Source: a virus. Taken from it: 35,353 nucleotides of DNA. The stretch is from the IMG/VR virus record IMGVR_UViG_3300049215_000478, positions 1-35,353 of that record; one strand, written 5' to 3'. Each line of letters starts with the position of its first letter. Position 1 is the first letter of the stretch. The position numbers and the translations under genes are program-made. The notes beneath the pieces are model-generated. The model did not search any database. It saw only the letters and a program-made list of their open reading frames with translations, and had not been told where the DNA came from. Shown here in pieces: positions 20,414 to 23,615 of the stretch.

Positions 20414-21418
20414 TTAAACGTTAAATGATTTACCAGCTACCCAGTCAATAACATCGTTTGTAACACCAGCAGGTGAACCTGTACCTGCTTGAAGTTGGAT
20501 TCCAAAGAATCCTGTGTTAACAGTAGAATCGCCAAGTATATTAGCGCCATTATTAAGAGCTGTAGCAGTGCTTTCACCAATAGGTACAACTTGAGCTGGA
20601 GTAAATCCAGGATCAGTTGTAAGAGGGAAAGCAAATGCAGTAAATCCTGATGTATCAATATCAACTGTAATTGTATTGGTTACACCATCGGCATCGGCTT
20701 GGTTGATAGCTACAATGTTGCCACTTAAACCATCAAGCTGAGTCATACCGAAAGCAACGGAAGATACGGTTGGAATAACGAATCTTACGTTTTGACCTAC
20801 AGTGAATTGATGTGTAACAGAAAGAGTCACAATAGCTTGAGTAGCTTGTGAAATCTTTGTAATTGTTCTTACAGGAGGATAGAACAATGGATTATAAGGA
20901 ATTCTTCTAAATGTACCTGCACCTGGGTTAGCATTCGCAATTTGAGCCATATACGCTAAAGTAAAACTTACACCAGCGCTTAAAGCACCTATTGTGAAAT
21001 CTAAACCACCAAGTTGAAGAGCACCAACAGTTGAGAATATACGAACTATATCTCCATTATTTAATGAAGAAGTATTAGCTGTATTAACAACTGGAGGGTT
21101 ACCGTTAGTTATTCCGCTAAGAGATAATGAAGGTCCAGGAATGTTAACGGAAGTATCAATTAAATAAAATCCTGAATTAGCAGCAATTTGGCCTACCTGC
21201 AAAGCATTTGTGGCAGCGGTTTTGGTATAAATTGTACCTCTACCTTGCGTCATACCTCTTTGCCAATAGAATTCTGCACCTGTACCAGCGCCTGCGGCAT
21301 AAGAAACCGTACGGTTCTTAACCCACATCCAATCAACACCACTAGGAAGTTGAATTTGTTGTGCTGCGCCTGTTGAAGTAAATGTACCTTGATTGGTACC
21401 GCTAAAAACAACGCTCAT
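20414..21418 (-). CDS. abundant-looking head-associated protein (334 aa), possible decoration or second capsid component
   Basis: Lies immediately downstream of the capsid gene with a strong AAGGAG RBS. C-terminal domain: THQFTVGQNVRFVIPTVSSVAFGMTQLDGLSGNIVAIN...ITVDIDTSGFTAF. Confidence 0.6.
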   Translation of the reverse strand: MSVVFSGTNQGTFTSTGAAQQIQLPSGVDWMWVKNRTVSYAAGAGTGAEFYWQRGMTQGRGTIYTKTAATNALQVGQIAANSGFYLIDTSVNIPGPSLSLSGITNGNPPVVNTANTSSLNNGDIVRIFSTVGALQLGGLDFTIGALSAGVSFTLAYMAQIANANPGAGTFRRIPYNPLFYPPVRTITKISQATQAIVTLSVTHQFTVGQNVRFVIPTVSSVAFGMTQLDGLSGNIVAINQADADGVTNTITVDIDTSGFTAFAFPLTTDPGFTPAQVVPIGESTATALNNGANILGDSTVNTGFFGIQLQAGTGSPAGVTNDVIDWVAGKSFNV

Positions 21419-21427
21419 GTATTCTCC

Positions 21428-22063
21428 TTATCTTAGGGTTGCACGCATATTTGTGATCCATAAATCATTTAACACACGTGGAGTTTCTGCAAAAACATAA
21501 CCTATTGTTACGTTTTGAAATAATGGATCAGAGAATACTGGAGGACGATATAAGAAACGTGCAGAATAGTTATCTTGTTCAACACATGCTAGAGCTTCCA
21601 TACCTTGTACGAAGATATTGAATACATCGTTTCCTAGTAATGAAGCATTCGGAGTTACGCTGCCCACGCTGGAAAGCATGAATCTAACGTTATTGCATGA
21701 ACCCCACTCACTTCTCAAAACTCTATTATCATTAGGATAATTCCATTTGGATATGAATCCATTAATGTTATTCAAATCCTTAGATAATCTAGTATGACCT
21801 AAAGCTAGGTAAGCATCACGGACTGGACCTGTACCGAATTTGTCTTCACCACCGATGGTATCAAGTATCATCCAAGCATCATTTGTTAATAATGCAGATG
21901 TTACGTTATCTATATCGGAAAGTGAAAGATCCGTTGGTATATCACCGTTATTTCCACCCGTACAATTGTAGATCGAAGCTGTCGAAGCTAGCATATCACG
22001 AGTTAGTTGGTCTTCAGTCATTCGAAGTGAAAGACCTAAAAGCTCAGCTGTTTCATTTAATAC
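21428..22063 (-). CDS. major capsid protein, exon 2 (211 codons)
   Basis: Starts VLNETAELLGLSLRMTEDQLTRDML, the segment that follows the exon 1 end in intact HK97-fold/N4-gp56-like capsid proteins. The track's M is a TTG belonging to the insert. Confidence 0.8.
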   Translation of the reverse strand, partial: VLNETAELLGLSLRMTEDQLTRDMLASTASIYNCTGGNNGDIPTDLSLSDIDNVTSALLTNDAWMILDTIGGEDKFGTGPVRDAYLALGHTRLSKDLNNINGFISKWNYPNDNRVLRSEWGSCNNVRFMLSSVGSVTPNASLLGNDVFNIFVQGMEALACVEQDNYSARFLYRPPVFSDPLFQNVTIGYVFAETPRVLNDLWITNMRATLR

Positions 22064-22458
22064 CAATCTGTTACTTTTATGACCTATTTCTAGGCGGGGA
22101 AGCCTATTGCACTTCCCTCATTGTGTTTCCACAATGTTCAGAGCACCGAATCTCACATTGCCGTGAGTCTTCTCGCTTGCTACGTTCAGGCTGACTAGGG
22201 TAAAAAGCTATCCATTCTTTAGTTTTTATATCTCTCATCCAGATGATATTTTCATTTATATTAATCCAACATACCCATTCAGATATATTAGTATCATCTT
22301 TTGTAGGATTTCGATTCGATAAAATATTGCCTTCCATAATTTCTTTTTTAATGTATTCGCTTTTTTTAAACCACATATCTTGCCCCTTGTTACCTTCAAC
22401 TTAATGGTTAGGCTTCCAAGTCTATCAGAGAAGATTTATAGACCCCATATTTTTGTTT
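22064..22458 (-). mobile_element. Putative group I self-splicing intron interrupting the major capsid gene
   Basis: Exon 1 ends in U. GACCCU (22464..22459) pairs with GGGGUC (22446..22441), forming P1 with a U.G wobble. The insert ends in G (22064). Removal joins CCU|GUA in frame. GNRA-capped helices lie at 22119..22136 and 22083..22094. Confidence 0.75.
22104..22376 (-). CDS. intron-borne ORF (90 aa), function unknown
   Basis: AAGGGG RBS 6 nt before the ATG. It sits in the AU-rich middle of the insert and its 3' end runs into the structured core. No GIY-YIG, HNH, LAGLIDADG or His-Cys box motif is visible. Confidence 0.5.
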   Translation of the reverse strand: MWFKKSEYIKKEIMEGNILSNRNPTKDDTNISEWVCWININENIIWMRDIKTKEWIAFYPSQPERSKREDSRQCEIRCSEHCGNTMREVQ

Positions 22459-22767
22459 AGGGTCTTGGTTTTGAAGGGTTACTTGTTGGTTTATAGCTAC
22501 ATAGAGTCCATAAAAGGACATTGTAGCGTCTATATCAACACGATTAAGCGGAGTTGCAGGAGGAGTTGCTCCTGAAGGCCCTAATGGAACTGGTGCTGTT
22601 GGCAATCTGTCATAACGGGCCATTCTTAAAGTTCGACCGCCCTTGGCTGGAAGACGTTTTGGCAATGCGCCTAGCTTATGAATCAAGTTAGGAGTTCTAA
22701 CTGATAAAAGCACATCATCAAAAGTTTGTTGCACAGGGGCAGGTAACGTTGTAGGTGTAGTTATCAT
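22459..22767 (-). CDS. major capsid protein, exon 1 (103 codons)
   Basis: GGGAG RBS 7 nt before the ATG at 22767. MITTPTTLPAPVQQTFDDVLLSVRTPNLIHKLGALPKRLPAKGGRTLRMARYDRL...TLQNQDP matches the N-terminus of N4-gp56-type capsid proteins. Confidence 0.8.
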
Positions 22768-22966
22768 ACACGTACTCCCAAAAATACAAACAATTAATAA
22801 TTTGAACACTGTGAGCTAGGCGAACACTCATACAGCCTATGAGCTGGCGATGGCTCAATACAGCCTTGGGGTGACGAGTCCCATACAGTCGAATTTTTTG
22901 AGATGGTGAATCTCGATACAACCAAAAAAAGTATATTAAGGGAAAGTCGTAAGAAGCAAGAAATAA

Positions 22967-23272
22967 TTAGAGAGATTAAGTAAAGATGAATTATATCGCC
23001 TCTACGTTACTTCATCCAAAGAAGATGGTGAAAATGACCGACAAATTCTAGTAAAAGAATTATTTAGCAAACGACTTAAATATTTAATTCCTTCTAGCAA
23101 TATAGATGGTCGTCAACGCAACGATAAAAAACAACTTAGAGTATATATACTGCCTCCAATTGAAGTAGCCAGAAAAGAATTCTGCAAATCTTATAGATGC
23201 AATTATGAATTGTTATTTGGGACAAACAAAGCAAATGATGAGTCAAGTGAGACGGACCATGAGTCAAGTTAG
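22967..23272 (+). pseudogene. Start-less 101-codon frame resembling the C-terminal tail of P4/D5/VapE-type primase-helicases
   Basis: Open from the TAA at 22964 to the TAG at 23270 with no ATG/GTG. Translates to ...DELYRLYVTSSKEDGEND..LVKELFSKRLKYL...GRQRNDKKQLRVYILPPIEVARKEFCKSY.... Recognition is from memory only. Confidence 0.3.
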
Positions 23273-23505
23273 TATATTTTACAAAACATGCACGTAGAGC
23301 TAGATGTTCCGAGTGAGCCAGGTGAGACATGGTTAGTTAAAGTTTTATTTTTGTTATAGCTATTATTGAGAGACGTAACAAATATAATTTTATTTTAATT
23401 TTTTTAACACGACTCACTCAACTCACTTGGAACAAGACGCTACTAATCGTGGTTTTCAAATATAAACACCTTGACTCGCAACTTAACTCACCCGACTCAC
23501 TTATA
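23237..23505. repeat. Long imperfect inverted repeat (arms about 95-100 bp) around an AT-rich core
   Basis: GTTCCGAGTGAGCCAGGTGAGAC (23306..23328) matches the reverse complement of 23411..23433 at 17/23. GAGTCAAGTTAGTATATTT (23261..23279) matches the reverse complement of 23458..23479. The core 23341..23405 is about 80 percent AT. Confidence 0.7.
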
Positions 23506-23561
23506 TTTTGTACAGTTAAATTATTGATAGAAAGCGAAGTTCGGAATTTTATAGATAGGAG

Positions 23562-23597
23562 AGGGCCATAAAAGAGCTACACAAAAAAAATGGCCCT
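23562..23597 (-). terminator. Hairpin after the scaffold gene
   Basis: AGGGCCAT / ATGGCCCT form an 8-bp stem with a T-rich loop on the minus strand, 19 nt after the stop at 23616. Confidence 0.45.
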
Positions 23598-23615
23598 TAC
23601 CCAATGAAGATTTTC

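Follow-up and report, generated by a model that had tools for sequence, protein, structure and literature searches.

The classical group I introns of phages, found in td, nrdB and nrdD of T4 and in Twort and K-group Staphylococcus phages, belong to subgroup IA2, are self-splicing and carry open reading frames (ORFs) that are looped out of peripheral helices (partly PMC11835236). In the Cluster J mycobacteriophage LittleE, an intron with a bottom-strand LAGLIDADG ORF interrupts the major capsid gene and was shown to splice efficiently by reverse transcription-polymerase chain reaction, and an ORF-less 265-nucleotide (nt) relative of this intron resides in a tail gene of BAKA/Optimus (PMC3706429). 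A group I intron in the capsid gene of lactococcal phage Tuc2009 is cited in the same study (PMC3706429). Moreover, the Jug jumbo phages (360-400 kb) harbor many compact group I introns of ~206 nt in essential structural and replication genes, which were found via published subtype models and whose splicing is supported by metatranscriptomes (PMC12880540). Here, we analyze a 35,353-nt stretch of viral DNA (IMG/VR record IMGVR_UViG_3300049215_000478, positions 1 to 35,353; hereafter the window), in which an insert of 395 nt splits the major capsid gene. Our results make it very likely that this insert is a group I intron and that it interrupts a major capsid gene expressed late and at high levels in an uncultivated tailed phage.

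The capsid gene lies on the minus strand. Its first exon (22459..22767; 103 codons, MITTPTT...QNQDP), delimited by the sequence itself, the profile match of the spliced product and a comparison with intron-less relatives, opens at the ATG at 22767 and closes with ...CAA GAC CCU at 22459, while the GTG at 22809, the opening codon of the listed ORF, is probably not the true capsid start. Past this point, the capsid frame enters the insert, where it encounters a UAA after 16 unrelated codons (KQKYGVYKSSLIDLEA). The insert itself extends from 22458 to 22064 and closes with ...GAUUG. The second exon (21428..22063, minus strand; 211 codons plus stop, VLNETAELLG...MRATLR) opens exactly at 22063 with GUA UUA AAU (VLNE...) and ends with a stop at 21428; at the junction, it has neither a Shine-Dalgarno sequence of its own nor a credible start codon. 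Conceptual splicing by exact deletion of 22458..22064 generates a continuous 945-nt gene with a 314-amino-acid product, which matches positions 1-318 of the 324 positions of TIGR04387 without interruption (119.6 bits, E=1.7e-34; cut-off 60 bits) and, as judged from this profile, is an N4-gp56-type major capsid protein. The Pfam profile Phage_capsid_4 scores just 22.9 bits on the same product, under its cut-off of 27.

A scan of viral contigs returned 80 related loci, 45 of which carry the capsid gene in uninterrupted form and at equal length, with identities of 58-95% (mostly 84-95%). The window's spliced product shares with all 45 the protein junction at which ...QNQDP is followed directly by VLNE..., encoded in the intron-less relatives by ...CAA GAY CCN and GTN YTN AAY GAA.... 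In one of them (L008), the nucleotide junction consists of CAAGACCCT joined to GTATTGAAT, and the intron-less form of the site, located after residue 103, reads CAAGAYCCNGTNYTNAAYGAA. For the window gene, the ligated mRNA is predicted to join ...CAAGACCCT to GTATTAAATG..., yielding the junction peptide ...QNQDPVLNETAELLG..., i.e. ...QNQDP-VLNETAELLGLSLR. Since the uninterrupted relatives agree in length and junction, and since the profile match runs through in one stretch, the insertion and its exact boundaries are real. The original prediction, made from the window sequence alone, had described a broken capsid frame with a 16-codon read-through, a second frame resuming with the next capsid segment, a 395-nt insert and an in-frame fusion of CCU to GUA that restores a 314-residue protein. 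All of this is borne out by the sequence, by the 45 relatives and by the uninterrupted alignment to TIGR04387.

The insert is a member of a mobile family. Its 5' part (nt ~10-82) and its 3' part (nt ~265-395) recur in capsid-gene inserts of relatives, which, when placed by mapping their exons against intron-less references, are found after capsid residues 11, 78, 96, 98, 103 (the window site), 118, 180 and 299. This one 945-nt gene hosts the family at eight sites or more, and viral contigs contain over 100 copies of it in total. It falls into three size groups, with inserts of ~200 nt (which lack an ORF), 290-460 nt and 750-1030 nt. A 20-mer spanning P7 and P3' of the window copy (GAACGTAGCAAGCGAGAAGA) has exact matches in 102 viral-contig stretches, a single contig containing as many as three, and around it P8, P9, P9.1 and P9.2 vary freely. 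Some single capsid genes contain two or three family inserts, as observed for L064 (1953-2167 and 2243-3000), L080 (696-896 and 942-1167) and L069 (916-1741 and 2327-2525). In the window, the family covariance model described below matches at the insert only and detects no second copy. A match to the 5'-core motif at ~20437-20451 (minus strand), near the end of the 334-amino-acid ORF 20414..21418, contains three mismatches and was dismissed as a chance match, because this ORF has a normal end and the family model gives no match at this position.

The ends of these inserts change with the insertion site. Whatever the site, U is the final nucleotide of the 5' exon, and the terminal 5-8 nt of this exon form a helix with a site-specific guide, which lies a few nt inside the insert, such that a U.G wobble falls on the junction. 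The respective exon ends and guides are CGCCU and GGGCG (site 11), UGUGGAU and GUCCACA (site 78), AGCAGGU and GCCUGCU (site 96), UACCCU and GGGGUA (site 98), GACCCU and GGGGUC (site 103), GAGGAU and GUCCUC (site 118), AUUCGGU and GCCGAAU (site 180), and GUGCCU and GGGCAC (site 299). In the window, the internal guide sequence region (22441..22451, minus strand) is evident from the sequence, from the P1 helix in the single-sequence fold and from its site-tracking in relatives. The 5' strand of P1, formed by the last six nucleotides of exon 1 (GACCCU, 22464..22459), pairs with the guide GGGGUC (22446..22441), which constitutes nt 13-18 of the insert and is thus preceded by 12 nt. Just upstream of the guide, AAUAU (22451..22447) can pair with the start of exon 2 to form P10 (GUAUU/AAUAU). 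This helix also varies by site, with the pairings GUGCA/UGCAU, UACAU/AUGUA, AGAA/UUCU and AUAG/CUAU in relatives, and is weak at site 118. In copies at site 96, P4 reads GGUG/CACU. A terminal G is present in nearly all delimited inserts, the 3' boundaries of L066_C and L056_C2 not being fixed to the base. One ribozyme scaffold has been retargeted to at least eight sites through a change of the guide sequence alone. The guide that was proposed 12 nt inside the window insert is present, a P1 helix with a wobble pair is found, as a rule, at all eight sites, and an exon ending in U and an insert ending in G (omega-G) are likewise features of the relatives.

Comparative analysis reveals the fold of a group I ribozyme. 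When 34 compact cores were aligned with MAFFT, the P6 loop being removed from the window copy only, RNAalifold predicted P3, P4, P5, P6 and P8 without guidance, with compensatory changes in 19 of 25 pairs. When the full structure was imposed on this alignment, with P7 as a pseudoknot, 88% of cells were paired, compared to 37-48% in slid controls, and double changes were seen in 37 of 49 pairs. A family covariance model (R1), built from 33 copies with the window sequence left out, found 80 full-length copies in 100 loci. After alignment of 69 distinct copies to this model, 96.0% of cells were paired from P3 through P9.2, compared to 37-51% in slid controls, and 41 of 47 pairs showed changes on both sides, a result matched by none of 500 shuffles. 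P3 is paired in 99.2-99.6% of cells, with compensatory changes in all seven pairs, and the helices of the 3' domain (P9-P9.2) in 94-96%, again with compensatory changes. P7 is paired in 100% of cells and comprises an invariant G:C pair, an adjoining invariant A:U pair (both in 69/69 copies) and four covarying pairs; because it is absent from the family model, its pairing cannot result from the way in which the alignment was fitted. A bulge lies 5' of the invariant G, and the flanking pair covaries between A:U, G:C, C:G and U:A. The G:C pair next to the bulge is presumed, from its position, to be the guanosine-binding site. P3 and P7 cross each other, thereby forming the P3/P7 pseudoknot that is defining for group I. 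In the window, the R1 model matches two segments that flank the ORF loop, a 5' half from P3 to P6 (22337-22441; 40.0 bits, E=1.3e-9) and a 3' half from P7 to the tail (22068-22255; 76.6 bits, E=1.8e-19).

The window intron (22064..22458, minus strand) starts with AAACAAAAAUAU and ends with ...AACAGAUUG, with the omega-G at 22064. P3 (UCUUCUC/GAGAAGA), recovered by RNAalifold de novo and supported by covariation, connects 22434..22428 with 22174..22168. The P4-P5 domain (22386..22420) is composed of P4 (CUUG/CAAG), J4/5 (GAA), P5 (GCCU/AGGU, within 22413-22392) with its loop AACCAUUAAGUUGA, and J5/4 (AA). P6 (22188..22385) has an outer GGGC/GCCU and an inner GAU/GUC helix and carries a loop of 181 nt, which holds most of an ORF and is closed by an additional stem (GGU..AAAAAGC/GCUUUUUACC; 22372..22359 with 22208..22199). 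The 3' part of the catalytic core (22140..22187) contains, in this order, J6/7, P7, J7/3 (AGC), P3' (GAGAAGA), P8 (CUCAC-GGCAAU-GUGAG, 22167-22152), J8/7 (AUUCGG) and P7'. The two strands of P7, GAACGUAGCA (including J6/7) and UGCUCU, are located at 22187-22178 and 22145-22140 and form the succession A:U, C bulge, G:C, U bulge, A:U, G:C, C:G, A:U, with the predicted guanosine-site pair between G at 22183 and C at 22141 and the bulged U at 22182. The 3' peripheral domain (22064..22136) folds into P9 (CAUUGUG-GAAA-CACAAUG), P9.1 (GGGAAG/CUUCCC) and P9.2 (CCUA-GAAA-UAGG) and includes a conserved tail, UCAUAAAAGUAACAGAUUG, that terminates in the omega-G. There is neither a P2 nor a P7.1/P7.2. Folding of the insert as a single sequence (z=-3.4) recovers P1, P4, P5, P6, P8, P9, P9.1 and P9.2 as well as the stem closing the ORF loop. 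The four helices singled out in the original prediction thus correspond to P8, P9, P9.1 and P9.2 and covary in the family, and its two further observations, a GC-richer 3' third (GC content 0.49 vs 0.25 in the middle) and an ORF looped out of the middle (90 amino acids, 22376..22104), hold as well. The read-through frame of exon 1 (22411..22458) crosses the guide, P3 and P4, and its UAA (22411-22409) lies within P5. Without coordination between translation and folding, ribosomes that trail the polymerase would consequently unwind the ribozyme's 5' half.

At the gathering thresholds (50 bits for RF00028, Intron_gpI), no Rfam family passes in the whole window, and a sensitive scan of 21900-22600 (E<=10) returned chance matches to small nucleolar and long non-coding RNAs, none of them to RF00028. 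The same model misses four compact ORF-less members of the family and a compact copy from the subfamily of the window intron, the latter even in a search space of 291 nt, and Rfam reports no group I match in the Staphylococcus and Mammaliicoccus phage loci considered here, including an intron-like intervening sequence in a ribonucleotide reductase (RNR) gene. As relatives and this intron-like sequence are missed alike, the negative result reflects a limit in the sensitivity of the model, whose score helps in detection but does not define a group I intron. The family-related insert of L079 at capsid site 180, by contrast, is matched by RF00028 from end to end (85.3 bits, E=1.6e-20); it shares its guide with L075, a member of the family, and its P9-P9.2 domain and tail with the window copy. 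In addition, J6/7-P7 (..ACGACUA..) and J8/7-P7' (..AUGCGAUAGUC..) of the sister subfamily are close to the RF00028 consensus. A search with a covariance model, suggested at the outset as a check, has therefore failed with RF00028 and succeeded with the family model, which locates the insert alone. With P3, P4, P5, P6 and P7, helices that the original prediction had not identified, covarying over 69 copies, the insert has a foldable P3-P9 core, and its interpretation as a group I intron is supported by both this covariation and the L079 match.

A further link leads to staphylococcal phages. A blastn comparison of the capsid gene and insert with GenBank phages returned no relatives, the only matches being short ones to the P5 module, which span 26-27 nt in staphylococcal phage intervening sequences. 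With 25 of 26 nt matching, the P5 module and GAAA-capped P9 of the window copy recur in an intervening sequence in the RNR gene of Staphylococcus phage PT1-1. In PT1-1 (L001, PP212900.1), this intervening sequence (1464-2378) splits the RNR alpha gene and contains an internal ORF. Its core (AAUCUAUCUAAACGG...CCGUGCUAAAU) is td-like, and the intervening sequence is neither annotated in the record nor recognized by RF00028. The Mammaliicoccus phage locus considered with it lies around 1480-1740 of phage phi116 (L002).

The identification of the insert as a group I intron has to be weighed against several other readings. It is conceivable, though improbable, that the window contains a decayed, splicing-dead group I remnant and, with it, a capsid pseudogene, the phage genome being either defective or mis-assembled. 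The loss of the homing endonuclease gene from the window copy and the missing RF00028 match would fit such a scenario, as would its J8/7 sequence, AUUCGG, which reads AUGCGG in most of the subfamily. However, the AUUCG variant is also present in the sister copies L064_D and L072_D, all invariant and nearly invariant core positions of the family are intact, and all helices from P1 through P9.2 can form. Moreover, neither exon contains a frameshift or stop, their identity to most uninterrupted relatives amounts to 84-95%, and the remaining structural module appears intact. P7 of the window subfamily (ACG-U-AGCA/UGCUC) differs from that of the sister subfamily (ACGACUA/UAGUC) by two compensatory pair swaps and one extra bulged U, a variant that does not represent decay because it is conserved throughout the subfamily of 102 stretches. 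Very improbable, in our view, is a split of the capsid into two separate polypeptides by a free-standing inserted gene, with no splicing of the RNA. Intron-less endonuclease insertions do split phage nrd genes, there is an ORF between the two gene halves, and the ORF listing assigns the second half a nominal TTG start. Yet this TTG is formed by the three final bases of the insert, with no Shine-Dalgarno sequence ahead of it, and exon 2 begins exactly at the residue that succeeds exon 1 in the uninterrupted proteins. The ends of the insert, in turn, form RNA helices with both exons that change with the insertion site, a pattern for which a split at the protein level provides no reason. Another kind of element, finally, has a next to negligible probability, even though group II introns, inteins, transposons or miniature inverted-repeat transposable elements and translational bypass like that of T4 gene 60 can all interrupt phage genes. 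The insert is out of frame for an intein, with a stop in the exon frame after 16 codons. A group II intron does not agree with a length of just 395 nt, the lack of a domain V or reverse transcriptase and the absence of any group II family from the sensitive Rfam scan, and a mobile DNA element does not agree with the lack of terminal inverted repeats and of a target-site duplication. Translational bypass would have to span 395 nt, about eightfold the known hop length, and matching take-off and landing codons are missing.

Several observations nevertheless weigh against a functional group I intron. The window copy, like the compact copy of the same subfamily, has no match to RF00028 at any threshold. 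Its J3/4 is unusually long (7 nt), P2 is absent, and its features do not permit assignment to a group I subgroup (IA/IB/IC...). The extra bulged U of P7 adjoins the presumed guanosine-binding G:C pair and distinguishes this helix from both the sister subfamily and the textbook P7, although its conservation in more than 100 copies argues, short of proof, that it is tolerated. Self-splicing of the intron, its efficiency and its independence from protein cofactors are inferred.

Based on its structure, the group I intron may act as follows. The capsid pre-mRNA would be transcribed through the intron, and GACCCU at the end of exon 1 would pair with the guide GGGGUC to form P1, placing the U.G wobble at the cleavage site. 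The core would then fold from the P3-P4-P5-P6 and P7-P3'-P8 elements, including the P3/P7 pseudoknot, braced by P9, P9.1 and P9.2, with the GAAA loop of P9 (L9) probably docking on the P5 module. A free guanosine held at the G:C pair of P7 would attack the 5' splice site, after which the terminal G (22064) would occupy the same pocket, with P10 (GUAUU/AAUAU) positioning exon 2. Ligation of the exons (...GAC CCU to GUA UUA...) would then produce the mRNA for the 314-residue capsid protein. Because the window copy is devoid of a homing endonuclease gene, it probably spreads passively or with help provided in trans by LAGLIDADG-encoding sister copies.

The ORF of the window intron (22104..22376 including the stop, minus strand; 90 amino acids) starts in the P6 region and ends in the P9.1 loop. 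Its AUG directly follows AAGGGGCAAGAU and is preceded by a Shine-Dalgarno-like AAGGGG, whose GGGG doubles as a strand of P4'/P6. The product starts with MWFKK..., and the frame crosses P7, P3', P8, P7' and P9, giving rise to the C-terminal tail QPERSKREDSRQCEIRCSEHCGNTMREVQ, with ...CEIRCSEHCGNTMR in the core-encoded part. In the loop, this frame has no stop in 61 codons, while the other two frames have four and nine, and the loop stays open in only 28 of 20,000 shuffles; the ORF is thus probably a real coding sequence. Its product has no match in Pfam (including DUF551, PF04448), NCBIfam or PHROGs, resembles none of the other cargo ORFs of the family and, in a comparison with 5.8 billion proteins, matches only itself. 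No LAGLIDADG ORF is present on either strand of the window intron, and the 90-residue product is not a homing endonuclease. Since the ribosome-binding site and the last third of the ORF overlap ribozyme helices, its translation and the folding of the ribozyme would be mutually exclusive on any given RNA.

Sister copies carry different cargo. Long copies (750-830 nt) at site 103 and other sites contain an antisense single-motif LAGLIDADG ORF of 159-178 residues in the P6 loop (LAYLAGIIDGEGCF; 21-22 bits to PF00961, just under its cut-off of 23.1), and the 3' end of this gene overlaps P4'/P5/P6. Copies of this kind are found in L073 (2249-3000), L072 (2245-3000), L055 (2187-3000) and L051 (1273-2040); the apparent 'ORFs' on the sense strand of these long copies were discarded as shadows cast by the LAGLIDADG genes on the opposite strand. 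In L065 (867-1897), L106 and L183, sense-strand double-motif LAGLIDADG ORFs emerge from the P1 loop (30-35 bits). Within the window's subfamily, the ORFs of ~80 distinct copies (among L083-L184) all start at one fixed spot in P6 (CAAGGGGCAAGAUUAUG). As they run in frame through P7, P3', P8, P7' and P9, their constant tail (..QPERSKRED..MRCSEHCGNTVRDK; ..QPERSKRED.., a P8 insert, ..MRCSEHCGNT..), which contains Cys and His residues, is encoded by the catalytic core. The N-terminal parts, by contrast, are very diverse (78 sequences in 64 clusters) and include DUF551 domains, CxxC..CxxC modules and sequences without relatives, like that of the window; DUF551 (PF04448) is matched by four sister-copy cargo ORFs at 23-37 bits. 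P8 frequently holds Cys-rich coding inserts that are also in frame. A literature search retrieved no paper linking group I introns to DUF551. It is tempting to speculate, albeit with more doubt than conviction, that the family may transport a variety of small accessory genes, with reading frames fused to the ribozyme, and may thus be more than a selfish vehicle for endonucleases. If so, selection would act twice on the same nucleotides, for the ribozyme and for the encoded protein, and splicing of the capsid mRNA would compete with cargo translation on each transcript, which would create a switch of timing or dosage late in infection.

The capsid gene is embedded in a normal structural module, in which the tail, portal and large terminase genes share its minus-strand orientation. 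Upstream of the capsid gene itself, a region of ~800 nt (22810..23615) is devoid of ORFs longer than 67 amino acids, is AT-rich (GC content 0.27-0.34 over 22900-23200) and is matched by neither Rfam nor the intron family model; it could represent a late promoter or regulatory region, or contain small genes. Among reference genomes, close capsid relatives (89-93% identity) are found only in two metagenome-bin contigs, one from a Bacteroidales metagenome-assembled genome (L185, CBFIII010000046.1) and one from a Saccharibacteria metagenome-assembled genome (L186, CAIUOC010000037.1). These are probably phage contigs swept into unrelated bins and therefore indicate no reliable host.

If the intron functions as proposed, the phage would rely on RNA self-splicing for its capsid output (hundreds of subunits per virion), so that splicing efficiency would set the burst size. 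Because the standard Rfam model misses the lineage, automated annotation will yield two broken "capsid fragments" and a hypothetical protein, while the family model and the junction rules would allow the correct annotation of capsid and other genes in this group of uncultivated phages with genomes of ~35-40 kb. The family also provides a natural experiment on intron mobility and may exemplify the overlap of protein-coding sequence with a ribozyme core.

Compared to the classical phage introns, the window intron shares its location in a protein-coding phage gene and an ORF looped out of a peripheral helix. However, it lacks P2 and P7.1/P7.2, has additional P9.1 and P9.2 helices, and places P3 only 6 nt after P1 and P3' only 3 nt after P7; the endonucleases of its family are of the LAGLIDADG type, whereas those of the classical introns are of the GIY-YIG or HNH type. 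As in the Jug phages, introns may be numerous: relatives of the window contain as many as three copies on one contig, and two or three can share a single capsid gene. The phages of the window group, however, are small (~35-40 kb), and their intron family is invisible to RF00028. With capsid-gene group I introns already documented in LittleE and Tuc2009, the window intron joins a known kind. Like the LittleE intron, it belongs to a tailed phage, interrupts the major capsid gene, follows an exon ending in U and itself ends in G, and the bottom-strand LAGLIDADG arrangement in LittleE is that of the long sister copies at the window's capsid site. Another parallel is the existence of short ORF-less relatives, which in LittleE's case sit in other structural genes (BAKA/Optimus). 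The hosts and phages are unrelated, and the two introns are likened here by their layout. Unlike its LittleE counterpart, the window copy has no endonuclease gene and instead contains a sense-strand gene for 90 amino acids, without known relatives, fused to the ribozyme core, and its family has settled at no fewer than eight sites of one and the same capsid gene.

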